From: Candidatus Latescibacterota bacterium
Lineage (GTDB): Bacteria > Latescibacterota > UBA2968
Direction of reading: 5' to 3'
Assembly: GCA_038279365.1 (NCBI GenBank)
Contig: JAYODI010000020.1
Coordinates: 1-19,855, forward strand
Length of the DNA: 19,855 nt
Shown piece after piece: positions 1,261 to 19,855 of the stretch. A program made the translations under genes and the position numbers. The first letter of the stretch is position 1. Each line of letters starts with the position of its first letter. The notes under the pieces are model-generated. The model saw only the letters and a list, made by a program, of their open reading frames with translations. It searched no databases and was not told the DNA's origin.

Positions 1261-1281
1261 GGTGTGGTGGACAGGAAAAAG

Positions 1282-1313: not shown

Positions 1314-1339
1314 AATTTGGAGTAGGCGTATCTATTTAC

Positions 1340-1680: not shown

Positions 1681-1776
1681 TTTTGATGGCTCTATAAAAG
1701 CATTTTGGTACGTTGGGGGTAAGACCCTATATTGTAACTGTTGGCAGTTTTAAAACCCAACAACCAGGTCATAACT

Positions 1777-2581: not shown

Positions 2582-2603
2582 AGCTTTGCACTTGTATATG
2601 TGA

Positions 2604-2638
2604 AAAAAAAGCAGCACACTCTGTGTGCTGCTTTTTTT
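2604..2638. terminator. Bidirectional intrinsic terminator between convergent genes
   Basis: A-run, gcagcacac-tct-gtgtgctgc, then T7. Confidence 0.88.
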
Positions 2639-2694
2639 ATTTTGTGATGTCGAAAATGACTCTTACGCTGTGTGAAAAGGTGCGTATGATGCGT

Positions 2695-4122: not shown

Positions 4123-4161
4123 GCAACATGCATCCTCTCTGCTTGTTAATGGGGTTGGTGT

Positions 4162-5385
4162 TTATTCAATGATTGTACCTTCTTTTTGAACGCGTTTTGA
4201 CATTGTTTTGAAGGTTTCAGATCCGTCATCAACCCAGCGTTCATAGTGAATGCCTTGCACAGCTCCTTCTTCAAAGCCTGTGATGGTTTCAACTTTGGGG
4301 TCGCCTTGGGTATAGATTTTGTGTCCACTGGGCAAATGAATGACACCTAAGGCATTGATTTGAGCAATGTGCGCGCGTTTGGCCGCTTGTTGGAGCTTTT
4401 TTTCATCAATGTCTAAGCCAATGCCAGGGGCTTCGGGCACACGCGAAAAACCGTCGATAACGTCAATGGTCGATGTGGTAATGTCGTCTTCATACTGATC
4501 GTCTAAGGTGATGAGGTGCGCTGTTGCGGTGGGCAAAACGGCGGCTTGGTGTAGCGAAAAAGCTTTCATGAGGGCATTGCCAGATTGTTGAATCAGCACC
4601 TGTATGTTTGCTTTGCCATACGCGTAACCGGCTTCGAGTGTTTTGCCTATGCCCCCACCGGTCATATAAATATCGGCCACGCCGTGAATGACCTCTTGCA
4701 TCCCACCCAGTTGCGCATTGTGCATGACGATTGGAAGCTGTGTTTTGCCGCGTAGTGTGCGCCAACCATCAATGTCTGTCCAGGGAAGCGGATCTTCAAT
4801 GAAGGCCACAACGGGATAGTTGCGTTCAAGGGTAGCCACAATGGGAAGAACGGTGGCCATGGTGCGGTTGTGATTAAAATCCCAATGTAGCTTGAATCCG
4901 TCGGGGGCCACATCGGCGGCGGCTTTGGTTTGTTCTATCACGTCCCATTTGGCATCGGAATGCATTTTAAAAATACGATAACCTTGATCGACGGCACGTT
5001 GAATTTCGTTGGCAAAAATTTCGGGTGCACACGGGCGCGTCCATGCCGCCACTGGAGCGGCATCGCGTAGTTTTTGCCCCATGAGTTTGTAGGCAGGTAC
5101 TTCGAGATATTTGCCCATAACGTCGTAAAGGGCCATGCCAATGGCCATGTTAAAGTTGTTGCCAATAAAGTCGAATGGGTTGCGATCTATGAGGGGTTCA
5201 ATTTCTGAAGGTGCAATGTTGGTGCGGTCTTCATAATCGCCATAGCCAATGATGCCGTTGTCGGTTGTGATTTTGACGACCACGTGTTGGTCAATGTCAT
5301 ACATTCGTGTTTTGCCGTGATGGTTGTCATATCGGTTGGCAAGTGGGAGGGCAATGGGAATGATTTCGATGTTGGTGATTTTCAT
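4162..5385 (-). CDS. Mandelate racemase/muconate lactonizing enzyme family protein (enolase superfamily)
   Basis: MKITNIEI start after AGGAG, VVKITTDNGIIGYG, MALYDVMGKYLEVPAYKLMG, WDFN, IEDP and VPEAPGIGLDIDE. Confidence 0.9.
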   Translation of the reverse strand: MKITNIEIIPIALPLANRYDNHHGKTRMYDIDQHVVVKITTDNGIIGYGDYEDRTNIAPSEIEPLIDRNPFDFIGNNFNMAIGMALYDVMGKYLEVPAYKLMGQKLRDAAPVAAWTRPCAPEIFANEIQRAVDQGYRIFKMHSDAKWDVIEQTKAAADVAPDGFKLHWDFNHNRTMATVLPIVATLERNYPVVAFIEDPLPWTDIDGWRTLRGKTQLPIVMHNAQLGGMQEVIHGVADIYMTGGGIGKTLEAGYAYGKANIQVLIQQSGNALMKAFSLHQAAVLPTATAHLITLDDQYEDDITTSTIDVIDGFSRVPEAPGIGLDIDEKKLQQAAKRAHIAQINALGVIHLPSGHKIYTQGDPKVETITGFEEGAVQGIHYERWVDDGSETFKTMSKRVQKEGTIIE

Positions 5386-5686
5386 AGCCAACTCCTAATA
5401 GGCTTGTGGGGTGTGATGTGTTCGTTCATGATGTATGATGACATAAAAAAGGTCAAGCCACATTTGTGTGGGAGATTTTATATTTGTAGTCTTATTGGAG
5501 AGTGCCATCAAACGCATTTTTCTGCAACCAATAAAACGTGACCGACACGGTGCAGATATTCTTATGTGTGATCATTTGTGTTATCCAACAATCGTCTTTG
5601 GTTATCATCGGCCATTTGGCTGAAGTTGGTCTCTCTCAAAATATAAAAAAGTGGTAGATGTTGTTGATAGCAACTTGATGATAGCA

Positions 5687-6757
5687 TCAACAGACCTCTG
5701 GCACACCGTCTTCACGGCGTTTATGTGGGGTTTTGTGATTGCCTGCCAGGATGTCGGCGGCCGTCCAGCCCATGTTGCCATGTCTTACGGCACCATAACG
5801 AACGCTTCCTTCGTCGGCAAATGGACGCACATTGGGCAGATCGAGCCAAATGCGCAAGAGCACGCGTTTTTTATCTTCATCTTCAATGGGTTCATAGCCT
5901 TCTTTTCCGTGGAACACCGTGTAGTTATTGAAAAAGGCAATGTCACCAGTATGCAATGGAAAAGCGAAGCTATTTTTTATGGCTGTTTCGGCAATAAAAT
6001 CGAAAATTTCAGTTTCTTGATCTGTGAGTTCTTGTTCAGCTTTTTTCATGCCACCGCGAATCCAACCCGGGTGAAAACGACAGGTGACCACACCTTCTGC
6101 GGCGCTAAATGCAGGTATTTTAAAATTGGAGAATGTTGTTTCGTTTGGATAATTGTCGACTCTGTTCCAGATAAAACCTTCATAGAGTCTGGGCAGGTAT
6201 TCGGGGTGTTGGCGGAGGATTTCGTTGTATACGGTCATTGAACTGGCGGCCAAGCTTTTTGGATCATCGGGTGCTTGGCGAACACAGAAAAGACCCACGC
6301 AATCTGAGAGATCTACGTGCAGTGCGCTGGGAGTGGGTTTGCCAAGAATGCGTGCGCCGTTTTGAGGAGCCAACTTTCCATCTGTGATATAATGAATCAG
6401 ACCGGCTTCTTTGTTTTGGGTGACACCGATCCCAAGGTGCGTACAAAGGCCCCAATACATTTTTTCTAAGTCTTCAAAATTATATCCTTCTGTTGGGAAG
6501 TTGGAAAGTAAAGTGAGCCCTCTGCCATTGCGAAGTTGGTGTAAAAGGTCTTTGAGGGTCTCTTTTAAACTGGGAAGTGGAAAGTCTTTTTGTGTGATTT
6601 CGGGAAATTTTAAGCCACGTTTATTGACTTGCTGAAGGGCTTGATCCAATTCGTCTTGTTGTTGTGTTGTAAGGCTAAATTTCCAAGAGGAGTCGTGTTC
6701 TAAGTCTTCACCGGTCCAAGCACTTGCATCTTGTATGGGTTTCATATGTGGGGACAT
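5687..6757 (-). CDS. TauD/TfdA-family Fe(II)/2-oxoglutarate dioxygenase
   Basis: AWTGEDL N-terminus, HVD...H facial triad (LHVDLSD; GDIAFFNNYTVFHGK), RVLLRIWL, and an AGGAG RBS. Confidence 0.9.
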   Translation of the reverse strand: MSPHMKPIQDASAWTGEDLEHDSSWKFSLTTQQQDELDQALQQVNKRGLKFPEITQKDFPLPSLKETLKDLLHQLRNGRGLTLLSNFPTEGYNFEDLEKMYWGLCTHLGIGVTQNKEAGLIHYITDGKLAPQNGARILGKPTPSALHVDLSDCVGLFCVRQAPDDPKSLAASSMTVYNEILRQHPEYLPRLYEGFIWNRVDNYPNETTFSNFKIPAFSAAEGVVTCRFHPGWIRGGMKKAEQELTDQETEIFDFIAETAIKNSFAFPLHTGDIAFFNNYTVFHGKEGYEPIEDEDKKRVLLRIWLDLPNVRPFADEGSVRYGAVRHGNMGWTAADILAGNHKTPHKRREDGVPEVC

Positions 6758-6791
6758 GATTGTTTCTCCTTGTTATGAGCGATACATGTAT

Positions 6792-8810
6792 TTACCGTTC
6801 TTCTATACCGTGATACCGGTTGGGGCGTCCACCATAAACGGGTGCCCGGCCGTCCCAAAATTCAGGTATCGTGTTGATTTTGCCTCTCCATGCTCCTCTT
6901 GGTGGCAGCATGTGGGCAGTAAAAGATTGGTTTTGCGAACCGGGCGATGTGGCTGTCTGTGTTGCTGTTTCAGAATGGTAGTGATAGCCATAAATACCAT
7001 GCCTGTGCCCTCCCCAAGCATCAAGGGGTTCTGTAGCCCCTTCGCTGCTGGTGTCATTGGGTATATATTTTCCATAGCCTGCAATACCGTCAAAACCCAA
7101 GCTGATAATGGGAGGATGGGTTTGACCAGCGTAATCTGGTGTGTTGTATAAGTTAAATCCTCGCCCTGTTGCACTGTGTCCATCGGCGTGGTAGTGCGCT
7201 CCTAAACCGCGGCCTGAGTGAATGCCCGTGCTGGTGATTTCACCTACTTCTTGTGCAAATGCGAGTGTGTTGTTGAGGCTGGGATAAACAACAACACCAT
7301 CAATAGCGATGCCGGTTGCAGAGACACTGGCATAGTTGAGATGGTTGAAGGTTGAAACGTTTTCATCTGTGGCGAGGTTGTCTGTTAACGTATTTTCTGT
7401 AAGCGTTTCTACTTCGCCGTAATCTTTCATGGCAATTTTGGCCATATATCCCATGCGAGCGGCATTGCGTGTTACTTTTTGCTCTGGGTATTGGGTTCCT
7501 GGTGCGCCATCTCCTGGGGGGCGTGGTACATCCCACAAGTGGGTCATGCCTTCAGGAACACCATAACTGGCAATGACCATAAATGGATGATGTATGCCAT
7601 TGGCATCTGCTTCATTGGTAAAGTAAACATAAGGAATGGTGTTTTCGCCAATCTGCATGTCATACATGTCTGATACTTGTACGATTCTTGAGAGCATGTT
7701 TTGGCGAACTGTTTTGTAAAATGTGATGGGATAGCGGAGTTTTGATCCTTCCGCAGTTAGGGTAGAGTCGATGGTCGCAAGCATGGTTTCTGCGGCTTTT
7801 GTGGTTGCATCATTTAATCCTTTTGCGGTTACTTGGGCTTTGTAAGGCCCTAAAATATCTTTGATGGATCCTGCCAGCCGATCTGTACCGTTGGAGGTAG
7901 CTCGAAATTCTTCATTGCTCACACGTGCGACATTTGTTGGGTTAAAGTCAATGGGTATGTCTTGTTCTAAAGGGGCTTGATACAATATGAATGGTGTGCC
8001 TGTTTGGGGGCTAAGAACAACTGCCGAACCGTTGATGGCAACATGCATCGCGGCCCAAGTGCTATCTGCTACAAAATCACTTGTTGCTGCATTGTAGGTA
8101 TAATGCCTGTTGGCAGTGATTTGTGTGGTTCCATTTGATGTTGTGAAGGTAAATGTGAGGAAGGCTGCCGATGTGGTGTTTAAGAAATAGCTTCGTATAT
8201 CTCGCATTACGAGTGTGGGCGTCCCTGCGATGGTGGCGTAGTCAACGGCATAATTGGCATGTTTGGGCGAGATAATCATATAGGTATTGGAAGATATTTC
8301 GATGAGTTTAAACATCGATTTGAGCAGTGTGTTTTGAGGCAGTGTGGTTGATGTGGCCAATCCACTTTCTATGGTAAAGGTGGCAGCATATGAGGTGCTG
8401 TTGTCATTTATGGCAATCAGGTCTTGCGTGTTTGCAACACCGAGTGAAATGCGTGTGAGATTGCCGAGCGATTGGGTGTGTGGTGTCCAGGAGATGGTTT
8501 GGTTGGTGGCAAGGATTTCAGCAAAGGTTTGAGGCGCATAAAAGCGTGTGGGTGTCGCATTGTCATTTCCCGTTGTGCCAAAGTTGCTGGCAAAGGTGAC
8601 AAAGTCTGAAAAATCCACTTTGTTGTCGCAGTTGAAATCTCCAACGAGCGATCCACACTCTGCATTGGGTTCTCCTGTTTTACCGAAGTTTGTTGCAAAG
8701 ATAAGGAAGTCGGAAAAGTCTACTTTGTTGTCGCTGTTTAAATCACCCGTTTGGGCATGTAAGGGGCCGATGTAAAAAAAGGAAAAGAGAAAGAACCAAT
8801 ATATTTTCAT
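6792..8810 (-). CDS. Secreted protein with N-terminal dockerin-like EF-hand repeats and C-terminal YHYH-type domain
   Basis: Signal peptide (..PLHA/Q), two DxNxDxxVDFxDF repeats, and C-terminal GIAIDGVVVY, AHYH, GFDGIAGYG, LDAWGGH, YHYH motifs. Confidence 0.8.
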   Translation of the reverse strand: MKIYWFFLFSFFYIGPLHAQTGDLNSDNKVDFSDFLIFATNFGKTGEPNAECGSLVGDFNCDNKVDFSDFVTFASNFGTTGNDNATPTRFYAPQTFAEILATNQTISWTPHTQSLGNLTRISLGVANTQDLIAINDNSTSYAATFTIESGLATSTTLPQNTLLKSMFKLIEISSNTYMIISPKHANYAVDYATIAGTPTLVMRDIRSYFLNTTSAAFLTFTFTTSNGTTQITANRHYTYNAATSDFVADSTWAAMHVAINGSAVVLSPQTGTPFILYQAPLEQDIPIDFNPTNVARVSNEEFRATSNGTDRLAGSIKDILGPYKAQVTAKGLNDATTKAAETMLATIDSTLTAEGSKLRYPITFYKTVRQNMLSRIVQVSDMYDMQIGENTIPYVYFTNEADANGIHHPFMVIASYGVPEGMTHLWDVPRPPGDGAPGTQYPEQKVTRNAARMGYMAKIAMKDYGEVETLTENTLTDNLATDENVSTFNHLNYASVSATGIAIDGVVVYPSLNNTLAFAQEVGEITSTGIHSGRGLGAHYHADGHSATGRGFNLYNTPDYAGQTHPPIISLGFDGIAGYGKYIPNDTSSEGATEPLDAWGGHRHGIYGYHYHSETATQTATSPGSQNQSFTAHMLPPRGAWRGKINTIPEFWDGRAPVYGGRPNRYHGIEER
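8577..8747 (-). repeat. Duplicated dockerin-like Ca-binding repeat (protein level)
   Basis: GDLNSDNKVDFSDFLIFATNFG and GDFNCDNKVDFSDFVTFASNFG. Confidence 0.85.
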
Positions 8811-8896
8811 GGGGCTGTTTCCTTGAGCGTCTGGTACCGTTTTGGGTGCTCGGAGTCTTTGGGTTAAGTGGGTTGCACAGGTAGGTTTACCAATGC

Positions 8897-9712
8897 TTAT
8901 GGGGTGGCTTTGTAAAGCCGTGAACCTTTGTCTTCTTTGCGGTAATGAGGGGCTGAGATGACGGCTTTTTGTTTTTCGGTGAGATCATCATAAAAGGGTG
9001 GTGGTGTGTAGGTGCCCATCAATCGCTCGGCTGTAACGCCCGTGTTGTAGCGCATGATCACAGAGCGCCGTTGGTGTTTGGCCACCCAAGGGAGTGAGCC
9101 GTGCATCAAGCATTCAACGAATAGAATGGCATCGCCTGCTTGGGCGGGAATTTGAACCATGCGCTCTTGGTGGGTTTGGTAGAGGCGGATGTCGTCGGGG
9201 CAAGGGTAATTGGCCTTGTGACTGCCGGGCAAACAAGCAAAACCGCCATCGTGAGGCCCCACATCACTGAGTTGTACGGCAATATTGGTCATGCCACAAA
9301 ACATGCGCCCATTGTGATAGCGATAGGTGCGCGAGCGGTCTAAAGGTTCACCGCCTTCATGAAACCAAAACCCTTCTGCACCTTCGTCCATGGTGATGAT
9401 GCTCATGGCTTCTAGGCGAAAACCTGGGCCGAGTAAATTTTCCAAATAGGGGGTGAGCTTTTCATGCACCATCATGTCGCGAAAAATATGGCAATGAGGT
9501 TTGTCCCAGGTGAGCATGCCACTCAAGTCACCACGTCCAATACGACCTTTTAGGGATGTAGATTCTCGGGCCAAATCGTTTGGGCGAATTTGAACTTTGT
9601 GGGCATGGTGATCGATGGCTGCATTGGCGAAAGCAATTTCTTCAGTTGATAAGACATTTTTGATAACCAAATAGCCATGTACGTCAAAAAGATATTTGTC
9701 TGTGTCGGTCAT
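8897..9712 (-). CDS. Phytanoyl-CoA dioxygenase (PhyH) family protein
   Basis: YLFDVHGYLVIKNVLS, DGGFACLPGSHK, AGDAILFVECLMHGSLPW and RRSV. Confidence 0.9.
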   Translation of the reverse strand: MTDTDKYLFDVHGYLVIKNVLSTEEIAFANAAIDHHAHKVQIRPNDLARESTSLKGRIGRGDLSGMLTWDKPHCHIFRDMMVHEKLTPYLENLLGPGFRLEAMSIITMDEGAEGFWFHEGGEPLDRSRTYRYHNGRMFCGMTNIAVQLSDVGPHDGGFACLPGSHKANYPCPDDIRLYQTHQERMVQIPAQAGDAILFVECLMHGSLPWVAKHQRRSVIMRYNTGVTAERLMGTYTPPPFYDDLTEKQKAVISAPHYRKEDKGSRLYKATP

Positions 9713-9809
9713 TTTGAGATTCTGGGTGAAGGTTTATAGGTGGTGATACACATTTCATGATTTGTGTAGAACAAAGGAAAGATGATCCGATTCTTTTATT
9801 CGTGTTATC

Positions 9810-9839
9810 AAGGTAGCACTGTTTACAAGCGAAAATCAA
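9810..9839 (-). promoter_or_regulatory. Putative sigma70 promoter for the PhyH-family gene
   Basis: TTGATT-N18-TACCTT with extended -10 TG, about 100 nt upstream of the ATG. Confidence 0.4.
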
Positions 9840-9950
9840 GTTGTTTGTGGGGTGTTTCTGTGTGATTTAGGAAGTGTTGTTCTCTGTCTTGTTCGGGGTG
9901 TGATGAGGGAGGTGTATAAAGAGGTTTTTAGGTGGTTTCCAAATTTTTTC

Positions 9951-9979
9951 TTGACGCACGGTTTTTGATTCTCTATATT
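9951..9979 (+). promoter_or_regulatory. Near-consensus sigma70 promoter
   Basis: TTGACG-N17-TATATT with an AT-rich tract upstream. Confidence 0.7.
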
Positions 9980-9985
9980 TTTCCC

Positions 9986-10118
9986 GACTGGCCTATGAAA
10001 AAAACAATAGTTTGAAACTCATTGAGTTTCAGCAGGATAGCCACTCCAGTCCTTGAGGCGCCTGCTCGTTCCTTCACTTTTTTGGTGATTTGGTGGATGA
10101 ACGAGTAGGCGTTTTTTT
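9986..10118 (+). ncRNA. Candidate structured small RNA (about 133 nt), family not recognised
   Basis: Begins 7 nt after the -10 box. 5' GACTGG pairs with CCAGTC (10046-10051), there is an inner hairpin tgaaactc-att-gagtttca, and it ends in a terminator. Confidence 0.55.
10058..10118 (+). terminator. Intrinsic terminator closing the sRNA candidate
   Basis: gcgcctgctcgttc ... gaacgagtaggcgt, a 14-bp stem with two G-U pairs, followed by a T-run. Confidence 0.75.
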
Positions 10119-10206
10119 ATTTTAAATTTGAATAAGTTTTTGAAATAAAATGATTAACGTATTTTGGGGGATTTGAGAGACAACCATCGGATGATGGCCC
10201 ATTTTT

Positions 10207-10382
10207 GCGCGAGTTCTTGGCGGGACGGCGCAGTCAATCGGTCACAAGTCTCAGGTCTTAAAGTCACAGGTTTAAACCATTACAAGTTTTTGGATTTTGA
10301 CTTGTGACCTGTTGACCTACGACTTGCAACCGATTTTTTGGGGTACATGAGAAAGGCCCTCGCGCGAGTTCTTGGCGGGACG
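10207..10382. repeat. 21-bp perfect direct repeat (two REP-like hairpins)
   Basis: gcgcgagttcttggcgggacg at 10207-10227 and 10362-10382. Confidence 0.9.
10236..10335. repeat. Long imperfect inverted repeat built from 7-8-nt tandem units
   Basis: Left arm aatcggtc-acaagtc-tcaggtc-ttaaagtc-acaggtt; right arm gacttgt-gacctgtt-gacctac-gacttgc-aaccgatt. Confidence 0.8.
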
Positions 10383-10801
10383 ACGCGAGGACCCCAAATC
10401 ACACCGACAGGTACATCCGGTGCGTTGTTTCTCTTTATTTTATGTTGTGACACAGCGGTTAAGCGTTGTGTTTCAAAAGTATACCGTAATTTTCTTTTTT
10501 GTGTATGTCATGAATGTGACGTGAATTTAACATTTTCATGATAGAAGAGAGGTTTTATGCCTATTTTTGAGAATAAAATTCTGATTTTAATGTGTTTATG
10601 TTAAAATGGTCTCGGTGCACATATATGCGCAGGTTTATACATATCCGAGATAAAAAATCCTCGGTATGATCTCTGACCAAGCCAGAAGCGCTGGAAAAAC
10701 GGTTTGTTAGAAAATATCTCGACGCAGGAATACCATTTGGTCTTAAGAGAGTGGATGAATGGCATCAAAAAACGCACAGCGAAAGACATCGAAGAGATGC
10801 T

Positions 10802-11764
10802 TTAAGTGAGATAACCAAGCTGTTGCAGGTACAGCATTTGAATATTGGGATCTTTGATCTGGTTCAGGATGTGGAAAAAGGCATAGCTGACTTTAATTGC
10901 GTGATCGGCACCACCGAGTTGTAATGCACTTGGCGATTCGATCTTTGGGTCGTAAGTATTCCAATAATTGGCTGTGAGGGGGCTAAATTCTGCAGGTTGA
11001 AAATGAAGCAGATCCCCTTGTTCATCATCGGGTGGGAGGCTTCGGAGTAAGAGGATGTGTGTTTGGTGCGCCAGATACCCTTTTTGTGACAGGTCTATAT
11101 AACCCATCTCTGCCAATTCAAGGAGCGCACAGGTGTGGGTGATCAGATGAACCTGGCCACCATACCCTTTTCGTTTGATTCTATCAGACGCAGTGAGTTC
11201 TTGAAACGCTGCTTGGATGACGGTTTCAATGTTTTGGTAGGGGGCAAAGTGTTTTTCGGGTTCTACAGGAATGCCAGACATCCATCCTTTTTCTTTTCCA
11301 TAATATCCTCTGCCTGGCGAATCGTTGAATTTTTCAATGAGCTTGCAAATGCCTTCCACGATGGTTGGTGTGATCATATGTGGCATTTGCCGAAGTCCTT
11401 TTAAGGCCAACGAGGCAAAAATGGTGCAGTGACCACTTTGGCGAAGCATCGCGATTTTTTGATCTAAGGCTGAGACAATTTGTGTGAGTAAGTTTGGGTT
11501 GTTTTGTTCGTTTGGATGAGGTGCAAAAAGGGAGTCTTGTTTTTCTGCGGCTTTGGTTTGTGGATCCCAAAATTGTCCGTTTTCTTCAATTAAGGTATCC
11601 ACCAAATTTTGGAATGGTTTTTGAGCGGATGCTTCCAAGTCGTTTTCTTTGCAAAAATAATATGCTGCAATAATGGCGGCGCCAGTATGCCCTTGCATCG
11701 CACTTTTGGTCCAGGCACGACTGAGTGCCGTAAGCCCTTTTTTTAAATAGTCGTCGCTTAACAT
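10802..11764 (-). CDS. Hypothetical helical His-rich protein (possible metalloenzyme)
   Basis: Long ORF (open to 11824); ATG 11764 has GGAG upstream. Motifs GHTGAA, SGHCTIFA, VHLITH and DHAIK. Confidence 0.7.
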   Translation of the reverse strand: MLSDDYLKKGLTALSRAWTKSAMQGHTGAAIIAAYYFCKENDLEASAQKPFQNLVDTLIEENGQFWDPQTKAAEKQDSLFAPHPNEQNNPNLLTQIVSALDQKIAMLRQSGHCTIFASLALKGLRQMPHMITPTIVEGICKLIEKFNDSPGRGYYGKEKGWMSGIPVEPEKHFAPYQNIETVIQAAFQELTASDRIKRKGYGGQVHLITHTCALLELAEMGYIDLSQKGYLAHQTHILLLRSLPPDDEQGDLLHFQPAEFSPLTANYWNTYDPKIESPSALQLGGADHAIKVSYAFFHILNQIKDPNIQMLYLQQLGYLT

Positions 11765-11891
11765 TGGGGGCATCTCCAAGATATATCCAGGATTTTCTTG
11801 TTTGGATGAAAACGCAATATACATAAAGAAAAATTTTGCACATCAGATTATCGTTCGGTATGCTCTCTGTACTTTTGGACAGGGTGAGATG

Positions 11892-11955
11892 AAAAAAAAA
11901 GCCACACGTCTCTGATTGTTTGCTTTATGGGCAAACAAATGGGAAACGTGTGGCT
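11892..11955 (-). terminator. Intrinsic terminator of the ATP-grasp/decarboxylase operon
   Basis: aagccacacgt...acgtgtggctt outer stem with inner ttgtttgc/gcaaacaa stem; the A9 run gives a U-tract on the minus strand about 20 nt past the decarboxylase stop. Confidence 0.85.
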
Positions 11956-11976
11956 TGGATACCTACTCGTGAGCGT

Positions 11977-13380
11977 TTAGACCATGAGTAGGTTATTTTT
12001 TTGCTGAAATTCGGGGTAACGGTCTTCAAATTGCTCGGTGTGGGTGACCCGTGTTGTTTCACCATCTGTGCTGTGATAGAGGGTTTGGCAAACAGGTTTG
12101 ATAAAGCGTTGTGACAAGGTTTGTACGTAAGAACCTTGTGCGGGCAAGATGAGGATGTCGTCTATTTCCATTTTTTCGGCATAACATGTGAAACCCCACA
12201 AATCGTGTGGGGTACACAAACTGCCATAAACGCGAATTTTGTGTTGTGTTTTTGATGGATGGGTGAGGTTGATGAGTGGGCAATGTTCCGATTCGAGCTT
12301 TTCCCAGCCCAACAAATTGGTGCCCCCATCGGTAATGGCCACATCGTCACCTTTGATGTCGCGCACTTGCAAAAAGATGTGAACCGCGGCGTTTACGATA
12401 TAGCGCCCTGGTTCGAGCCAAATTTGTGGGTTGCCCAATGGCGCAAGATGTTGATCTACGGCTTTGAGAATGTCTTGGGCCATGTCTTCGATGGGTTGTA
12501 CGGGGTGCAAAAGATATTGCATATCCCAATCGGCGGGTGGCTGATTGGGGTCTTTGCCTTCCAAAAGGGCACGCAAGCGATTTTGGGGTGTCATCCAAGG
12601 GTAAATAGCTTCGTCATCTTCAGGATAATACCCACCGCCAATGTCAATGAACTTCCAACCCTTTTGAGGGGCATTGGCCTTGAGCACGGGGCCTAATTCG
12701 GCCAATGTGTTTTGGTAGCCTTTGGATTGGCGATTCCAACTGAGGTGAAATTGAACGCCTTGTAATTCTATGTTTTCAAAAGCAGAAGTGGTGCGCACAA
12801 ATTCGGGCAATGCACTAAGTGGAATGCCAAACTTGGTCCACAGACCGTGAGCTCCAATGTTGAGACGAATGCCTGCGCGTATGGTCACGCCATTTTCAGA
12901 TGCGAGGGTATTGAGTCGTTCGCGTTCTTGAAAGCTGTCTAAGTGCACCGTGACACGATCGGCATTGTCTACGGCCAATCGCAATTCGTCATCGGTTTTG
13001 GCAGGGCCACTAAATACGATGTGTTGAAAGCCCAATTGCAATGCCAATTCGAGCTCCAAACCACTGGAAGCATCGGCGCTTAAGCCTGCTTTTTGAATGG
13101 CTTGTACGATGGAAAAAGTCGGATTGGCCTTAAAAGCATAATGAATGCGTATGGCATGCTTTTGTTGTGCAAATGCGCGTTGAAAGCGGTGAATTTGCCG
13201 CAACAGACGTTTTTCATCCACCACATAGGCAGGTGTGCCAAAGGTTTGGGCCATGTCGAGTAAGGTGTCGCGTTCTGCAAGAACGTCACTGACCAAACCT
13301 GTGAGTTCCCCTTTGTAAAGCGGGGTGTGATCTTTGTCTAAGAATGTATCAAGAGCTTCATGGAGGTCTTTATTTTTCAT
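11977..13380 (-). CDS. Fold-type III PLP-dependent decarboxylase (diaminopimelate/ornithine decarboxylase family), substrate uncertain
   Basis: FGTPAYVVD, YAFKAN (PLP lysine), ASSGLEL, SGPAKT, KFGI, DIGGG, EPGRYIV, GSLCTPHD and GSY. ATG 13380 chosen because it avoids overlap with the upstream gene. Confidence 0.9.
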   Translation of the reverse strand: MKNKDLHEALDTFLDKDHTPLYKGELTGLVSDVLAERDTLLDMAQTFGTPAYVVDEKRLLRQIHRFQRAFAQQKHAIRIHYAFKANPTFSIVQAIQKAGLSADASSGLELELALQLGFQHIVFSGPAKTDDELRLAVDNADRVTVHLDSFQERERLNTLASENGVTIRAGIRLNIGAHGLWTKFGIPLSALPEFVRTTSAFENIELQGVQFHLSWNRQSKGYQNTLAELGPVLKANAPQKGWKFIDIGGGYYPEDDEAIYPWMTPQNRLRALLEGKDPNQPPADWDMQYLLHPVQPIEDMAQDILKAVDQHLAPLGNPQIWLEPGRYIVNAAVHIFLQVRDIKGDDVAITDGGTNLLGWEKLESEHCPLINLTHPSKTQHKIRVYGSLCTPHDLWGFTCYAEKMEIDDILILPAQGSYVQTLSQRFIKPVCQTLYHSTDGETTRVTHTEQFEDRYPEFQQKNNLLMV

Positions 13381-13414
13381 GGTTCTTTCTATTTGGCTAA
13401 ATAAGTGATGGTAT

Positions 13415-14653
13415 TTACGCGCTTTTTTTAATTTTTTCTTTGCGCTTGGCAACGGATTTGAGCTTGATATCTATGCGCTTGGTAAGCATTTCGACCAAGA
13501 TCGGTAAGTCATCAGATTTGACACATTGGACGATACACGATGCCAAGATGCTGTCGTCATAACTGCCTGCCCAAGATCGCAACTCGTCCCCTTTGAGATG
13601 ATAAGGGTCTACGTGCAAAACAACAGGATGTTGTTTTAATCGGTCAAAATTAATGTCTTCAATAATGCCATTTTGATCGGTAATAAGATGCAGTGCTGCC
13701 ACGGGCTTGGGGCGATCTATGCTGGGTAAGTCGGGCGTTTTGCCCAAGGCCACTTCACAAGCAATGCGAATGGGGTCATACCCTGTGGCATGTAGACACA
13801 AATCTGGCAGACAGTCACCACCTGGGCGCAAGGCCATTTCGAGTAAATAAAGTTTGTTGCGCATCCAAATGGCGTCTACCATCACAATGCCACTTTTGAC
13901 ACCCAAGGCCATCACACCCCGTAAAAAGGTGGTGTGAATGGTATCGCGCATGCTACCTGTTATATTGGCAGGGTAATAGGCACCTACCAAACCTGCACGG
14001 CCTTGACAGGGCAAAAGATATTTTTCTGTTAGGCGTAAAATGTGAACATTGCCCCGTTCGACATATAAGTCTGCACTAAATTCACGGCCAGAAACACATT
14101 GTTGGGCAAGGTAGGTCGAATGGCCAATGCCTGCGGTAATGCGTGCATGGGCCTCTATCAGATCCTCTGAATTTTCGACCCGAAGCACCCAAGCACTGCC
14201 TGATCCTTCTGCGGGTTTGAGGATGTATGGGCCATCGGTTTGTGTGGCAAAGTCGAGCAGGTCATTGAGGTCGCGTATTTTTTGTGTTGTGGGTGTTGTG
14301 ACCCCTTCGCGTTGCCAGGCCATGTTCGATTTGTGTTTGTCACGTGTGCGTTGTACGAGCGCATCGGAATGAAAATGCAAATTCAGTGCTTGAGCAAGCG
14401 CTGCTGTTTCGCTCATGGCTTCGCATATAAATGTGGTGATCCCTGCAAACGTGACGTTGTGTTTGCGTGCCCATTCTGCAACGGTTTGATGTGTTTCTGC
14501 TGCGTTTTCCAAATCGACTGCAATGACGTGGGGATGATGTTTGAGTTCCTTGGCACGTTGTTTGGTCGCAACAAAAACGGCATCGGGCACGGTGTTTAAG
14601 ACACGACGCGCATAATCATCGCTGGGTTGCACAACAAGGAGTGTTTCGCTCAT
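13415..14653 (-). CDS. ATP-grasp domain protein (L-amino acid ligase-like) 3
   Basis: RDKHKS, PYILKPAEGSGS, GREFSAD and LLEMALRPGGD; start directly abuts the upstream stop. Confidence 0.88.
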   Translation of the reverse strand: MSETLLVVQPSDDYARRVLNTVPDAVFVATKQRAKELKHHPHVIAVDLENAAETHQTVAEWARKHNVTFAGITTFICEAMSETAALAQALNLHFHSDALVQRTRDKHKSNMAWQREGVTTPTTQKIRDLNDLLDFATQTDGPYILKPAEGSGSAWVLRVENSEDLIEAHARITAGIGHSTYLAQQCVSGREFSADLYVERGNVHILRLTEKYLLPCQGRAGLVGAYYPANITGSMRDTIHTTFLRGVMALGVKSGIVMVDAIWMRNKLYLLEMALRPGGDCLPDLCLHATGYDPIRIACEVALGKTPDLPSIDRPKPVAALHLITDQNGIIEDINFDRLKQHPVVLHVDPYHLKGDELRSWAGSYDDSILASCIVQCVKSDDLPILVEMLTKRIDIKLKSVAKRKEKIKKSA

Positions 14654-16006
14654 TTATGATACACTTTCAGATTGTTCATGTAAAATGGGTTGAGGGTCAA
14701 TGTGAAACTGAATTTGAGCATAGAGTTCTTCAAGTGTGTTGTTTGCTTCTTGAAGTGTGTTGCCAAATACCGATATGTATCCTAAAAATTCATATCCATG
14801 AGGAGGGGCGAGGAGTTTGTCACCCAATGAAAATTCAAAGTGTAGTTCGCTCAGACGAGGGTCTTTTCGAACGGCGTCTTCACCGTGAATGGCAATAAGC
14901 GTACCTGAGACGTCGGGCAAAAAGTAACGCATATGCATGGCCCCTTGGTAGGGATGGTCGGCATAAATGCGCGATTCACCCGTTGCAAGGCGCAAGCCTT
15001 CTTCATAAATGTCGATGTGCATGACACGTTTGAGAAAGTCGGTGATGTTGTCGGCACCGCGGCGGGCAGCAATTTCGATTACAAAGATGCCCTGCTCGTT
15101 GATTTTGAGCTCACAATGGAAACATGAGTTGGTGAGGCCCAAAGCATGCACGGCTTTTTCTACCGTGTCTTTGATGCGGCTTTCAGTGGTTGTTCCCAGT
15201 CGTGTGGGCATCCACTCTTCATATTCGAGAAAATAGTCGGTGTTTTTGATGCGCTCAATTTCAATGACGCCAAAACAAGAGACTTGCCCATTAGAAACAA
15301 TGCCATCTACGCTGATTTGTTGGCCGTGAATAAATCCTTCCAACAAAAAGTCGGTTTCGGGATTCATCACATCTGATGAGGCGATGCCGTGGCCTGCTTC
15401 GGGCAACCAAAATTCAAAAGGGTATTGTGGGTATTGCTCTTTATAGGTGCGAATATATGTTTGCACAGCATCTAAGTGCGCTTCAATTTCTTCTTGAGAG
15501 TCGGTTGGGTCTATGCGAATGACCCCGTAACTTGATGAGCCACTAAGAGGCTTAAGCACCATAGGTGCTTGGCGCTTTTGCACATGTTGATGAATGGCTT
15601 TTGCGTTGTGAACCAAGTGAAATTCTGGTACCGATAACTGGGCTTCTTTTAATGCTTTGCGCATGAGATATTTGTTGCGTGCCCGCAAGGCTGCACGTGG
15701 ATGGTTGCTGGGCAGGCCCAATTCTTGGGCCAAAAAACTGGCCATGAGCACACCTGTTTCTGAAAAACTGGTGATGCCATGAATGGGTTGTTTGGCATGT
15801 AACGTTTGCACTTGGGCAAGTGCTTGGTCAAAGTTTGTCTCAAAGTCGCAAGCGATGATGTTGTCAAAGCAGGCCTCATCGTTGATATCGGGCCGTTTTT
15901 TAAGCAGTGAAAAACAAAAACCTTTGCCTGCTTGTGCTTGCGTATAGGGGGTTGGGTCAATGGCTGTGTGAACGATGAGAATATGTTTCAAAAAACAACC
16001 TTTCAT
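14654..16006 (-). CDS. ATP-grasp domain protein (L-amino acid ligase-like) 2
   Basis: RNKYLMR, PMVLKPLSGSSSYGV, LLEGFIHGQQISVDG, FHCELK and IEIAARRG. Start is ATG 16006 or TTG 15991. Confidence 0.9.
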   Translation of the reverse strand: MKGCFLKHILIVHTAIDPTPYTQAQAGKGFCFSLLKKRPDINDEACFDNIIACDFETNFDQALAQVQTLHAKQPIHGITSFSETGVLMASFLAQELGLPSNHPRAALRARNKYLMRKALKEAQLSVPEFHLVHNAKAIHQHVQKRQAPMVLKPLSGSSSYGVIRIDPTDSQEEIEAHLDAVQTYIRTYKEQYPQYPFEFWLPEAGHGIASSDVMNPETDFLLEGFIHGQQISVDGIVSNGQVSCFGVIEIERIKNTDYFLEYEEWMPTRLGTTTESRIKDTVEKAVHALGLTNSCFHCELKINEQGIFVIEIAARRGADNITDFLKRVMHIDIYEEGLRLATGESRIYADHPYQGAMHMRYFLPDVSGTLIAIHGEDAVRKDPRLSELHFEFSLGDKLLAPPHGYEFLGYISVFGNTLQEANNTLEELYAQIQFHIDPQPILHEQSESVS

Positions 16007-16070
16007 AGATGAAAGATGAATGGCGAGAGATTTTTCTTCTTCCTTTTTACGTCTTTCTTCTTGCCGCTTC

Positions 16071-17363
16071 TTAGTCTGCAACATCACCATAAAGAATGGG
16101 TGCATTGGGGTTGATATCAAATGCACGAGAAACGCGATGGGTATGTAAATCCAGGCTGCGTTTGGCGGATGTGTAGTTTTTGCCCCATACGCTTACCCAC
16201 CCCAAGTTGTCGTAGGCTACGGGAGGTACTTCTACGCGGTCACCGTTTTGTTTGGTGTAAACAATTTCGATGAGTTTGTTGTTGCGCTTTGCATAGCGGA
16301 TGGGTTTGATGCGTACTAAACCGGGCTGTTCGGGCACCAAGGTGGTTGAAATACCCCAACCTTTTGGGCGAACAGGTGTGTGAATGGGCATGCCAATGGC
16401 CACACGGATATTTTCTTCGGCCAAATTAATGCCATAAACGCGTTTGACCAAAGGTTGAATGCAGTCGCCACCCATGCGGGCACCAATTTCGACAATGCGT
16501 GGGCCTTCGGGGGTGAGTTTGACTTCGGCATGAATTCCAGAGTGGGTTAAGCCTTGTGCTTTGACGCCACTGACCACCATGTCGCGAATGGCATTTTGAA
16601 CAGTTTGTGGAAAACGAGAGGGTGTGGTTTCGCCACGTTCTATAAATGAACCATCGTCCATTTTGGCTTTGTCAATAATGGCATAGAGGGTCACGTGGCC
16701 ATCTTTAACAACGCCTTCGACACTGACTTCTGGGCCAGACAAAAATTCTTCAAGCACAAACCGAGCGGGCGGATAGGGATATAAGCTATCTTGCACACGG
16801 GCACGGTTGCGATTTTCGCGATAAATTTTAAGGGCATGCTCGGCATTTTCAACGCGGGTAACCCATTCGCTGTCGGCACCCCATTCGGGTTTGAGCACGG
16901 CAGGTAATTTGAGTTCTCGGCAGGCTTGAATGAGTGATTCTTCGCCTGTAATAAGGCGGAAATTGGGAACGGGCACACCGGCATTTTTGAATGCTTCACG
17001 CATGTGATATTTGCTGCGTGCATTCATGGCGGCTTTGGGCGTGTTGCCTGGCAAACCTAAGTGTTGGGCAATTTCGGCACAGGTGGGTACGTCTTCTTCC
17101 CAGAATGTGACCACGCCTGTGAGTTTGACACGTTGATGTAGTTCTTCAACAAGAATGAGAATATCGGCAAGGGTTTTGCCGTGGGTATAAATCGTTTCTT
17201 GGGCATAATCATCTGCCCAGCCGGGGTTGGCATTGAGAAGGTAAATTTCAATACCCATTTCGGCAGCGGTTTCGAAGGTGAGGCGCTTTTTGACGGAGCC
17301 GCTGTGTACAAAAAGCAATTTGGGGCACGTAGGTGCGGGTGTGAGGGGTTGGTTATCTATCAT
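16071..17363 (-). CDS. ATP-grasp domain protein (L-amino acid ligase-like) 1
   Basis: RSKYHMREAF, PAVLKP, LEEFLSGPEVSVEG, IHAEVK and VEIGARMGGD; GGAGG RBS. Confidence 0.92.
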   Translation of the reverse strand: MIDNQPLTPAPTCPKLLFVHSGSVKKRLTFETAAEMGIEIYLLNANPGWADDYAQETIYTHGKTLADILILVEELHQRVKLTGVVTFWEEDVPTCAEIAQHLGLPGNTPKAAMNARSKYHMREAFKNAGVPVPNFRLITGEESLIQACRELKLPAVLKPEWGADSEWVTRVENAEHALKIYRENRNRARVQDSLYPYPPARFVLEEFLSGPEVSVEGVVKDGHVTLYAIIDKAKMDDGSFIERGETTPSRFPQTVQNAIRDMVVSGVKAQGLTHSGIHAEVKLTPEGPRIVEIGARMGGDCIQPLVKRVYGINLAEENIRVAIGMPIHTPVRPKGWGISTTLVPEQPGLVRIKPIRYAKRNNKLIEIVYTKQNGDRVEVPPVAYDNLGWVSVWGKNYTSAKRSLDLHTHRVSRAFDINPNAPILYGDVAD

Positions 17364-17584
17364 AGTACTTAATGACCTCCATAGTCGAGCAGGTAAACGG
17401 TGGAACGCAGAAAATTATGTGAATAATCGGATTTCATGATTGTATCCTTGAGTGCAAGTTGTGATGCTTAAATAGGTAAACAATTTCTGTGCCAAAAGCG
17501 ATAAACCGTGGTTTTGCGTGTCAACGTGTGTCAATGGCGACAAAATTTCGTAGTGAAAGGCCCAATAGGGTCATTTTGTCGCCC

Positions 17585-17614
17585 AAAAAAAAAGCACCGT
17601 TGTTTAACGGTGCT
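17585..17614 (-). terminator. Leader terminator T3
   Basis: AGCACCGUU-AAAC-AACGGUGCU followed by U8. Confidence 0.85.
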
Positions 17615-17656
17615 AAAATAAAAAAGCGCACTGTCAAACAACATTCAACAGTGCGC
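17615..17656 (-). terminator. Leader terminator T2
   Basis: GCGCACUGUU-11 nt-GACAGUGCGC followed by UUUUUUAUUUU. Confidence 0.82.
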
Positions 17657-17682
17657 CATACATAAGCATTGAGCGATTGCAC

Positions 17683-17732
17683 AAAACGCACTGTTGTTGA
17701 AAAGGGCAAAACCTCTGATCTTCAACAGTGCG
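17683..17732 (-). terminator. Leader terminator T1, overlapping the aptamer 3' end
   Basis: CGCACUGUUG...CAACAGUGCG, a 10-bp stem followed by UUUUG. Confidence 0.6.
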
Positions 17733-17820
17733 GCTATCCTAAATGGTGTTACGCCAAGTGAGGACCCGTTCCTTCGCGTCCTGCGTTTTCACGCAGTTTG
17801 CCTTTTCAATTTCGAAGATC
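17717..17820 (-). ncRNA. c-di-GMP-I (GEMM-I)-like riboswitch aptamer, variant
   Basis: GAUCUUCGA...AAAAGGCAAAC-UGCGU-GAAA-ACGCA-GGACGCGAAG..CGGGUCCU...AGGAUAGCCG..UUGAAGAUC: 9-bp P1, GNRA-capped P2 with GGCAAAC/GGACGC, and P3 with the AG bulge. Confidence 0.8.
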
Positions 17821-17827
17821 AAGGGCA

Positions 17828-17856
17828 AGTTTAAAGAAACGGAATCTTATTGTCAA
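17828..17856 (-). promoter_or_regulatory. Sigma70 promoter for riboswitch leader and ATP-grasp operon
   Basis: TTGACA-N17-TAAACT; the predicted start near 17821-17820 coincides with the first P1 base. Confidence 0.8.
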
Positions 17857-17876
17857 CAAAAAAATAAAATATTTTT

Positions 17877-18461
17877 TTATCGGTCTTTCCAAATGAGCAA
17901 ACATTCACGCTGGCGTCGCCATCCTAAGCAGAATCGACGCTTTTTGGTGCTGCTGTCAAACCAATCTTTTTGAATGGCGAGGTTGGGTTGACGGCCATCT
18001 AAACTTTGTAACACACGAACTTGTCCTGCTAATCCTTGTAGGCGTGTTCGGTAATAAGCATCGAAGCAATAAATCCAATTATCTTTGGCATATTGGGCCA
18101 ATATGAAGTGTTCTTCTGCTTTGCTTAAAAGCACATTGCACATTGCCACGCCACCACTGTCGAAACATTGGGTGATTTTGTTAAGGGTGACATTGTCGCC
18201 ATCCAGATACTCGGTGGTGACACTGTAGCGTGGTGTTTTATAAGAAGAAAGAAATTCGGCCAGTAAGCGTAAGGCCAAACGGCTGGTGCCTGCACGCCCC
18301 AATTTATTGCCCCTTCCAACGGTATCGAGACTATACATATAAATGTGTCGTACGATAATAGGGGGAATGTCGCGCCGGTCAAAAAGATATGAAATGGCAT
18401 TTAGCAGCGTTGCCGGTGCACAGTCGTATTCAGAGACTTGATAACTGAGCGGTACTCTCAC
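17877..18461 (-). CDS. Peptidase C39-like (papain-fold cysteine peptidase) protein
   Basis: YQVSEYDCAPATLLNA (Q...C), EHFILA and YCFDAYY give the Cys-His-Asp triad; GTG start after GAGGAGG. Confidence 0.8.
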   Translation of the reverse strand: MRVPLSYQVSEYDCAPATLLNAISYLFDRRDIPPIIVRHIYMYSLDTVGRGNKLGRAGTSRLALRLLAEFLSSYKTPRYSVTTEYLDGDNVTLNKITQCFDSGGVAMCNVLLSKAEEHFILAQYAKDNWIYCFDAYYRTRLQGLAGQVRVLQSLDGRQPNLAIQKDWFDSSTKKRRFCLGWRRQRECLLIWKDR

Positions 18462-18472
18462 CTGTCCTCCTC

Positions 18473-19813
18473 TTAGGGTGTGTTTTGAACGTGTTCGATG
18501 GCTTTACGTAAAATGTAAAGGGCTTCCAAACACTGTTCGTTGGTGATCACAAGTGGTGGCAACAGACGAATGCAGTTGCTGTAGAGACCTGCCCGAATAA
18601 GGAGCAAGCCATTGGCTGTGGCGTGTTTGACAATTTGCAATGTTTGATCAACGGCTGGTGTTTTGGTATTTGGGTCTAAGACAAATTCGATCAATTGCAT
18701 GGCCCCCACACCGCGTGTGTCGCCAATAAGGGGATATTTTTTGCGCCAACTGCCAATTTCGTTGGCAATGAGATCGCCAATTTCATTGGCTCGTTTTAAA
18801 AATGCGGGTTGATTGATTTGGTCGAGGGTGGCCAATGCGGCCACACAGGCAATGGGGCTACCTGAGTAGGTGCCACCCAACCCGCCCGGATGAGCGGCAT
18901 CGAGAATTTCGGCTCGGCCAGTTACGGCACTAATGGGCAAACCCGACCCCAACGATTTGGCGGTGGTGATGAGGTCGGGCACAATGTTGTCGTGTTCAAT
19001 GGCAAAGAGCTTGCCTGTGCGGCCAAAACCCGATTGTACTTCATCGGCAATCATGACAATGTTGTGTTGGGTACAGATGTCGCGAATTTTTTGTAAAAAC
19101 GCTGTGGGCATGGGGATAAAACCCGCTTCACCTTGAATGGGTTCGATAAGGATTGCCGCGATGGCCGATGGATCCACTTGCGATATGAGTGCTTTTTCAA
19201 GTTGGTCACAACAGTGCGCAATATAGGCCTTTTCCGACATTTCGGAAGGGCGACGATATGGATAGGGGTGTGGCAGGCGATAAATTTCGGGTGCAAAAGG
19301 GCCAAAGCCTTTTTTGAAGAGGCCATATTTGCTGGTGAGACTCATGGTAAGATAGGTACGCCCATGATAAGCCCCTTCAAAGACAACAATGGCAGGCTTA
19401 CCTGTGTAGGCGCGTGAAAGCTTAACGGCATTTTCGACGGCTTCGGCACCAGAGTTGCTCAACAATGTTTTTTTGGCAAATGTACCGGGTGTCATTGCGT
19501 TGAGGCGTTCACACAGTTCAATGTAGGGTTCGTAGGTGGCGACCAATGCGCATGTGTGAATGTAGGCGGCTGCTTGTTGTTGAATGGCTTCAACAACGGT
19601 GGGTGGGCAATGCCCCGCGTTGAGCATGCCAATGCCACCGGCCATGTCGATGAGGGTGTTGCCATCTATGTCGTGAACAACAGCACCTTCTGCACTTTTG
19701 ACAACCACATCTGTGGCGCGTGCCAGGCCAGTGGGTACGGCGGTTTGGCGACGGGCCAAAATGGCTTGGCTTTTGGGGCCGGGAATTTCTGTTTTGAGAT
19801 GAATGGTGTTCAC
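18473..19813 (-). CDS. gabT: 4-aminobutyrate--2-oxoglutarate transaminase (class III aminotransferase)
   Basis: DMAGGIG, NSGAEAVENAVK, AYHGRT, EPIQGEAG, IADEVQSGFGRTG, TAKSLG (PLP lysine), GGLGGTY and NCIRLLPPL. Confidence 0.88.
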   Translation of the reverse strand: MNTIHLKTEIPGPKSQAILARRQTAVPTGLARATDVVVKSAEGAVVHDIDGNTLIDMAGGIGMLNAGHCPPTVVEAIQQQAAAYIHTCALVATYEPYIELCERLNAMTPGTFAKKTLLSNSGAEAVENAVKLSRAYTGKPAIVVFEGAYHGRTYLTMSLTSKYGLFKKGFGPFAPEIYRLPHPYPYRRPSEMSEKAYIAHCCDQLEKALISQVDPSAIAAILIEPIQGEAGFIPMPTAFLQKIRDICTQHNIVMIADEVQSGFGRTGKLFAIEHDNIVPDLITTAKSLGSGLPISAVTGRAEILDAAHPGGLGGTYSGSPIACVAALATLDQINQPAFLKRANEIGDLIANEIGSWRKKYPLIGDTRGVGAMQLIEFVLDPNTKTPAVDQTLQIVKHATANGLLLIRAGLYSNCIRLLPPLVITNEQCLEALYILRKAIEHVQNTP

Positions 19814-19855
19814 GTGTTTCTCCTGAAGAAGAGGCGGATTAGCGAATCAGCGAAT

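Follow-up and report, generated by a model that had tools for sequence, protein, structure and literature searches.

A c-di-GMP-I riboswitch leader with three successive terminator hairpins of interchangeable arms: a plausible relay attenuator ahead of an ATP-grasp operon in Latescibacterota

In the present study we analysed a 19,855-nt stretch of DNA from Candidatus Latescibacterota bacterium (GenBank assembly GCA_038279365.1, contig JAYODI010000020.1, positions 1 to 19,855; hereafter the window), whose minus strand carries, ahead of an operon of ATP-grasp genes, a leader composed of one aptamer of the c-di-GMP-I class (c-di-GMP, cyclic di-guanosine monophosphate) and three terminator-like hairpins, T1, T2 and T3. 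Folding calculations and comparison with related leaders suggest, with a probability that we put at roughly 0.55, that this leader is a transcriptional ON switch for c-di-GMP, in which a chain of seven segments would adopt one of two mutually exclusive pairing registers and so relay the state of the aptamer from hairpin to hairpin. This relay reading, whose basis is modelling together with comparative anatomy, is the best supported of those considered here, and we regard it as plausible and partly supported. Numbered along the RNA, arms 2 and 3 form T1, arms 4 and 5 form T2 and arms 6 and 7 form T3, while the alternative helices AT1 and AT2 pair arm 3 with arm 4 and arm 5 with arm 6, respectively. 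Neighbouring hairpins share segments throughout, and the formation of one excludes the adjacent one, as in chained-hairpin attenuators. As the transcript grows, its minimum free energy (MFE) structure switches between the registers {P1, AT1, AT2} and {T1, T2, T3}, P1 being the closing helix around the aptamer, and the two registers lie close in energy.

In the absence of ligand, arm 2, which is the 3' strand of the aptamer, would pair with arm 3 to give T1, arms 4 and 5 would give T2 and arms 6 and 7 would give T3, such that a weak T1 would be backed by two strong terminators and leakage would be very low. Once c-di-GMP has bound, arm 2 would be retained by P1 and by the second helix of the aptamer, leaving arm 3 free to capture the nascent arm 4 (AT1), and the freed arm 5 would in turn capture arm 6 (AT2), whereupon no terminator would form and the polymerase would continue into a small open reading frame (ORF) and the ATP-grasp operon. 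Termination at T1 to T3 and the kinetic persistence of AT1 and AT2 are presumed in this scheme, and c-di-GMP as the ligand, as well as its stabilisation of P1, is predicted from knowledge of the riboswitch family. We also entertain a more far-reaching form of the relay, to which we would assign somewhat less than an even chance, namely a register-shift or 'domino' attenuator in which a single binding event would be stored as a pairing register, carried over ~130 nt and used to switch off three terminators in succession, with near-zero leakage and full read-through, and which would be conserved together with the operon even on horizontal transfer.

The three hairpin-plus-U-tract elements past the aptamer had been pointed out in an initial annotation of the sequence, and folding bore out all of their coordinates and pairings (Table 1). 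T1 (17732-17687) folds with -21.4 kcal/mol (z score -3.8), T2 with -20.7 kcal/mol (z -6.5) and T3 with -13.3 kcal/mol (z -5.4). The terminator scan reports T2 and T3 and leaves out T1, as the loop of T1 is over the limit of the scan and its U-tract is made up of four U. The three 5' arms are near copies of each other, and so are the three 3' arms; hence, every 3' arm is able to pair with the next 5' arm. As annotated, the 3' arm of T1 is a perfect 10-nt complement of the 5' arm of T2 (17655-17646), and the AT1 pairing is mutually exclusive with T1 and with T2. The annotated match of 7 in 8 positions between the T2 3' arm and the T3 5' arm was likewise correct, and the pairing in reality extends further, with 10 bp, one mismatch and 4 bp (17642-17633/17608-17599; 17631-17628/17613-17610); this AT2 pairing excludes both T2 and T3. 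The duplexes between successive arms amount to -17.8 (2:3), -19.2 (3:4), -22.7 (4:5), -13.0 (5:6) and -14.7 kcal/mol (6:7). The cross-arm values of -18.9 kcal/mol for T1-3'/T2-5' and -14.8 kcal/mol for T2-3'/T3-5' were reached by none of 1000 arm shuffles, and those of two related leaders described below (L008 and L009) by at most 1 in 1000. The 12-mer TTCAACAGTGCG does occur at both 17644 and 17721; by chance 0.13 matches would be expected, and a count of two was reached in 2 of 200 shuffles. On both strands of the 6-Mb genome the hairpin pattern has six matches, five of which come from these three hairpins while the sixth is unrelated (a reversed-pattern control gave three genome matches). 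Two other candidate identities of the hairpins were rejected: a dispersed repeat resembling repetitive extragenic palindromes, since the hairpin family is confined to this leader in the genome, and a bidirectional terminator serving a convergent gene, since the plus strand has neither a T-run after the hairpins nor a gene end here.

The overlap between the first hairpin and the aptamer, also part of the initial annotation, is confirmed by the Rfam alignment: the 5' arm of T1 lies inside the RF01051 match, the 3' end of which is at 17721, arm 2 consists of the 3' strand of the second aptamer helix plus the linker, and the inner stem of T1 spans the 3' strand of P1, which is the terminator/aptamer overlap found in ON platforms. 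The alignment is full-length (model positions 1-87; the gathering score of RF01051 is 35), and the match is the only one in the 6.0-Mb genome. The first helix, CUGCGU-GAAA-ACGCAG, has a GNRA-tetraloop cap in the alignment, the stretches GGCAAAC and GACGC agree with the family consensus, and the second helix is present with the 3' strand CCGCACU and four non-canonical pairs. A second aptamer was not found in the window, where Rfam gives this one RF01051 match and no other family. The position of the sigma-70-type promoter implies that the transcript start adjoins the 5' strand of P1, and among the relatives the promoter reads TTGACA-17-TAATAT in L014, with TTGACA kept in G002.

Table 1. Elements of the riboswitch leader and of the start of the operon, in window coordinates
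Feature	Position	Strand	Basis and remarks
Sigma-70-type promoter, TTGACA-17-TAAACT	17828..17856	-	Promoter scan, 10/12 consensus matches
P1, 5' strand GAUCUUC	17814..17820	-	Reverse complement of 17723-17717; P1 in MFE of the aptamer region
c-di-GMP-I (GEMM-I) aptamer	17721..17812	-	RF01051, 50.7 bits, E 1.8e-7
P1, 3' strand GAAGAUC	17717..17723	-	Within 5' half of T1
T1: 5' arm CGCACUGUUG (17732-17723), 3' arm CAACAGUGCG (17696-17687), tail UUUU	17683..17732	-	Folding
AT1: arm 3 (17696-17685) with arm 4 (17657-17646), 12 bp including 2 G-U	17646..17696	-	Duplex -19.2/-18.9 kcal/mol
T2: 15-pair hairpin (17657-17625), tail U6AU4	17615..17657	-	Terminator scan and folding
AT2: T2 loop and 3' arm with T3 5' arm, loop and first 3'-arm bases	17599..17642	-	MFE
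T3: 9-pair hairpin (17614-17593), tail U9	17585..17614	-	Terminator scan and folding
Interval from T3 to first gene, 147 nt, poorly conserved apart from a ~40-nt block and the ribosome-binding site	17438..17584	-	Comparison with G002
Small ORF, 22 codons, MKSDYSHNFLRSTVYLLDYGGH, first gene after the leader	17369..17437	-	ORF list, comparison with G002
First of three ATP-grasp (L-amino-acid-ligase-like) genes	16071..17363	-	Operon annotation

Related leaders were compared mainly in two genera, g1, the genus of the window (the window; genome G002, locus L008; and L014), and g26 (L012, identical to L029; L031; and L032). When the first ATP-grasp protein was used as a query, 5 loci turned up on genome contigs and 12 on metagenome contigs, and the protein was found in 16 of 168 genomes of the phylum. 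Among the leaders of these operons the RF01051 threshold is reached in the window, L008, L014 and the g26 loci, with 54.8 bits in G002, 53.1 in L014 and 45.7 in L012; the aptamers of G002 and L014 are almost the same as that of the window, and the P1 of g26 differs, with GUCUUCG/CGAAGGC replacing GAUCUUC/GAAGAUC. The full-length leader is present in one of 60 related genomes, namely G002, at 73% identity overall, with the aptamer and T1 barely changed and T2 and T3 retained but altered. Three-hairpin leaders stand before the same operon in the two further g1 assemblies and in one genome of another class (L009), and the lineages g18, g30, g31 and g14 have other leaders at this place. Cross-arm complementarity, which according to the initial annotation should be conserved in relatives, is indeed kept, and at several junctions it exceeds the terminator's own pairing. 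In L008 and L014 the 5' arm of T3, CCGCACUGUUGG, has a core identical to the T1 and T2 5' arms, and its pairing with arm 5 is a perfect 10 bp at -18.0 kcal/mol, versus -12.7 kcal/mol with two G-U pairs for the T3 stem itself.

The three species of g26 have two hairpins, of which 2:3 is without a U-tract and 4:5 combines a core of 6 bp with a conserved mismatch and a U7 tail, ending a few nucleotides upstream of the next ORF. Arms 3 and 4 form a duplex of 10 bp, which in all three species is more stable than the terminator 4:5, so that the logic is that of a classical anti-antiterminator (2:3), antiterminator (3:4) and terminator (4:5). These two-hairpin relatives suggest that 2:3/3:4/4:5 is the core design, to which the genus of the window would have added one unit and a short U-tract on the first hairpin. 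In L009, arms 2, 3 and 4 have changed in concert (CACUAU/AUAGUG) and arm 5 has retained its C, which leaves an A.C mismatch in T2 and a perfect 3:4 duplex, and arms 5 and 6, read directly, pair at 13 of 13 positions including G-U pairs. A search of L009, L010 and L011 against Rfam returned no aptamer at an E-value cutoff of 1, the L009 leader remained without one at a cutoff of 10, and the L009 genome has no RF01051 match anywhere; this operon was probably acquired horizontally, with a sensor that is degenerate or altered. The L009 leader (3520-3830) has the same arm family, its operon occurs in 1 of 351 genomes of that class, and within its family (1 of 5 genomes) no relative of the leader was found beyond L009 itself.

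The g26 arrangement raises the possibility that the working switch of the window is likewise limited to 2:3, 3:4 and 4:5, that T1 is no real terminator and that T3 was added as a partly constitutive stop which caps output. Consistent with this, the first hairpin of g26 and of L009 is without a U-tract, T1 of the window is followed by no more than four U and does not figure in the terminator scan list, and the window's 5:6 duplex contains a central mismatch. However, all three g1 assemblies preserve the T1 U-tract, UUUUGUGC, in none of the four three-hairpin leaders is 5:6 weaker than 6:7, and T3 is occupied to only 0.00-0.10 in the modelled ON register of the window, L008 and L009. We consider this four-segment reading quite unlikely.

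The hairpins might also be recent local copies that merely serve as redundant stops, with a cross-complementarity devoid of function. The near-copy 5' and 3' arms and the exact 12-nt repeat are what such copying would leave behind, as is the outcome of a cross-lineage duplex control, which revealed no lineage-specific matching. Yet the layout persists across leaders with no more than 57-62% identity between the ATP-grasp proteins beside them, and also in another class, arm 4 follows arm 3 and not arm 5 in g26 and L009, and an operon for which no other promoter is visible would be shut down by stops that act unconditionally. We hold a pure by-product of duplication to be very unlikely.

To follow the relay reading along the growing RNA, we used a self-written model of co-transcriptional folding that combines local minima, findpath barriers and a master equation (k0 = 2e5 per s, 0.02 s per nt) and returns helix occupancies with the RNA at each stem end or U-tract. 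ON-like RNAs begin just past the 3' strand of P1, with arm 2 hidden, and OFF-like RNAs begin at arm 2. In the ON-like window RNA, T2 was occupied to 0.09-0.10 and T3 to 0.07-0.10, with AT1 at 0.45-0.81 and AT2 at 0.90-0.93, versus 1.00 for T1, 0.83 for T2 and 0.95-1.00 for T3 in the OFF-like RNA, and the effect held at 0.2 s per nt (T2 0.16-0.17, T3 0.00). In the model, shuffling of the T1 3' arm (arm 3) abolishes the relief of T2 and T3: two shuffles gave 0.38-0.54 and 0.43-0.44 for T2 and 1.00 and 0.63 for T3, the first T2 value being possibly too low as the state list was at its limit. A similar switch was modelled for L008 (ON-like T2 0.08-0.11 and T3 0.00; OFF-like T1 1.00, T2 0.85 and T3 0.82-0.87), and ON-like occupancies were low in L009 (T2 0.02-0.05, T3 0.07-0.10) and, for T2, in L014 (0.10-0.11). 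In g26 the terminator was relieved in L031 only (0.00-0.14). The co-transcriptional folding proposed in the initial annotation as a check of the relay thus passed the state on in the window, in G002 and, at T2, in L014 and L009, and failed in two of the three two-hairpin leaders and late in L014. Energies with the aptamer enforced point the same way in part. In the window AT1 is the MFE structure until arm 5 emerges, and from 17600 to 17585 the aptamer with AT1 and AT2 (-81.2 kcal/mol) beats the aptamer with T2 and T3 (-78.6 to -78.9) and is also stronger than the aptamer with AT1 and T3 (-76.1 to -76.4). The findpath barriers, which are uncalibrated, are 9.5 kcal/mol from AT1 to T2 and 11.4 kcal/mol from AT2 to T3.

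Several observations weigh against the relay. With the aptamer enforced, T2 is ahead by 2.2-3.5 kcal/mol in the window when the RNA ends at the T2 stem, and at equilibrium ON-like RNAs with this end have T2 at 0.99-1.00 in L008, L014 and L009, which are three of the four three-hairpin leaders; with T2 preferred at equilibrium, its relief depends wholly on kinetics, and the model that supplies the kinetics is self-written, coarse and uncalibrated. That model also has T3 of L014, at 0.00 at the stem end, rise to 0.78 eight nucleotides later, and leaves the g26 terminator at 0.90-0.95 in L029 and at 0.90-1.00 at +8 in L032. In a full-length ligand-free run P1 remained at 1.00 and T1 at 0.00, so that the OFF route was not reproduced, and the equally uncalibrated barrier from the aptamer to T1 is 17.9 kcal/mol. 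T3 of the window carries a compensatory change from U-A to C-G that strengthens the T3 stem at the cost of a C.A mismatch in 5:6. Finally, local duplication without selection could yield arms as alike as these, and the duplex control mentioned above does not speak for lineage-specific matching. Of the relay as first annotated, then, the exclusive registers of similar energy, the behaviour of the coarse model, the retained cross-pairing and an interval from T3 to the first gene free of promoter-like sites stand in its favour, and the equilibrium preference for T2, the failures of the model and the missing OFF route stand against it.

Some of these failures may lie in the model. T1 would likely nucleate on the free linker CACUGUU, forming a pseudoknot with P1, a topology that a nested model forbids, and this could account for the ligand-free run. 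In g26 the leaders L029, L031 and L032 contain, at around leader positions 135-150, a spacer, CUCCUUCGCGCG, that is complementary to the aptamer core CGCGAAGGA and paired with it in the MFE structure. The model fails in two of the three g26 leaders since this spacer can also pair weakly with arm 3; by its predicted pairing with the core it may serve as an additional clamp that opens up the ligand-free aptamer. The two states could not be told apart by equilibrium pair probabilities of truncated RNAs, where nested alternatives such as 2:5 with 3:4 interfere.

The statement in the initial annotation that riboswitches typically use one terminator per aptamer is a fair one, although a dual-terminator c-di-GMP-I riboswitch, Bc1 of Bacillus thuringiensis, has been published (Liu et al. 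2024, PMC11218506). Bc1 carries both terminators within a single expression platform, 28 bp from each other, and its authors describe a dual terminator of this kind as rarely seen. In Bc1, c-di-GMP unfolds T1 while T2 stays active and masks the response (PMC11218506), a behaviour that adds to the points against a relay. Bc1 is the closest described system: it belongs to the same aptamer family, places more than one rho-independent terminator behind one aptamer in a single platform, and has a weak first terminator that overlaps the aptamer and is followed by a stronger one. It differs in having two terminators rather than the three of the window leader, and in that its T2 is folded and active with c-di-GMP, whereas relief of both T2 and T3 of the window is predicted by our modelling. 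In addition, the arms of the window leader are interchangeable, with a 3' arm that could capture the next 5' arm, and no such cross-pairing is described for Bc1 in the parts of the report considered here.

Following the Bc1 precedent, it might be that only T1 of the window responds to c-di-GMP and that T2 and/or T3 always stop transcription, in which case mainly short RNAs would be made and the operon would be served by an unrecognised promoter or by basal read-through. The thermodynamic lead of T2 over AT1 after arm 5 has emerged would fit such masking, as would the evolution of the window's T3 toward its own stem and a conserved block of ~40 nt between T3 and the small ORF. We nevertheless judge it unlikely. 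The separate promoter that the initial annotation had set against its own proposal did not turn up, as the stretch separating T3 from the small ORF, the first gene, contains no promoter-like site in either the window or L014, and L009 has one weak 9/12 site that overlaps T3 and is within the shuffle range. The distance from the last terminator to the first ORF is a few to ~45 nt in g26 and L009 and leaves little room for a separate promoter. Moreover, the cross-arm complementarity is kept, in places better than the terminator stems, and the folding model predicts relief of T2 and T3.

Overlapping, mutually exclusive hairpins are the principle of chained-hairpin attenuators such as the trp leader (1:2/2:3/3:4) and the PyrR-type anti-antiterminator, antiterminator and terminator. 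In both of these and in the proposed relay an upstream decision is passed on to a later terminator, and g26 has exactly the four-segment logic, but in the window neither a ribosome nor a protein but a riboswitch aptamer would be the trigger, seven segments make up the chain, and all three hairpins of one register are followed by U-tracts. The other c-di-GMP-I riboswitches of the two nearest relatives, from the same genus and family (L064 in G001 and L057 in G007), resemble the window leader in that the 3' strand of the aptamer, CCGCAC..., is also the 5' arm of the terminator in an ON arrangement, and differ in having one terminator each and no downstream repeat of the arm. A downstream repeat of at least 10 nt of the aptamer 3' end was found in none of 25 other c-di-GMP-I loci of the phylum, which were drawn from 55 matches with the leaders of this operon left out. 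Tandem riboswitches, too, have several terminators per leader, but the window has one aptamer, and its later terminators are without a sensor of their own. Our literature search, which extended to papers without their supplements, yielded no account of a riboswitch followed by a three-terminator relay.

Riboswitch platforms are usually described as one aptamer set against one terminator, and in Bc1, the only two-terminator case to have been studied, the response to the ligand was hidden by the second. If the relay reading is true, a natural platform in which successive hairpins hand on the decision would demonstrate how one weak sensor can gain a very high dynamic range, and it would offer a simple and copyable design for synthetic RNA switches. 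It would also tie c-di-GMP to an uncharacterised peptide/ATP-grasp biosynthetic operon of an uncultured lineage.

Concerning this operon, the small ORF is followed by three ATP-grasp genes, a gene for a pyridoxal 5'-phosphate-dependent decarboxylase (13452-11977) and a gene of 340 amino acids. An ORF ending in [YF]GG[HRL] precedes the first ATP-grasp gene in all 21 homologous loci, and the operon looks like a precursor or scaffold peptide with its tailoring ligases; no paper on such an ATP-grasp operon under c-di-GMP-I control was found in the literature. The block conserved with G002 in the interval before the small ORF reads CGGTTT.TC..TTT..GCA......ATTGTTTA.CTA (17455-17500, minus strand). 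The organism is present in samples from estuary and salt marsh. At the transcript level, three metatranscriptome runs carry parts of the leader in low-depth Logan contigs, which settle neither starts, ends nor read-through: X17 covers 17653-18000, across T1, X18 (17348-17568) and X19 (17342-17516) cover the small-ORF region, none crosses T2 or T3, and a DNA run breaks at places like the ends of the RNA contigs.

In one genus, the loci L012 (2862-3896), L029, L031, L032 and L020 have an ORF of 344 amino acids between the riboswitch and the small ORF, which appears FliG-like when its translation is judged by eye. If so, a protein resembling a flagellar switch component would be made together with the peptide operon at high c-di-GMP. 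In another genus, L016, L017, L021, L035 and L036 have a different structured leader, located ~250-300 nt before the ATP-grasp gene, with the same kind of promoter (GACGCGGAGGAU...AUCGCGUCC) and a GACGCG(A/G)AGGA motif in common with the c-di-GMP-I core. These leaders gave no RF01051 match and may represent a diverged variant. Genome G067 of the same phylum has 22 RF01051 matches, whereas the 24 other genomes that have any carry 1-5. Elsewhere in the window, the minus strand has a region of ~1.1 kb (9713-10801) without an ORF of at least 120 amino acids, in which a direct repeat of ~20 nt, GTCCCGCCAAGAACTCGCGC, lies near 10390 and 10225.

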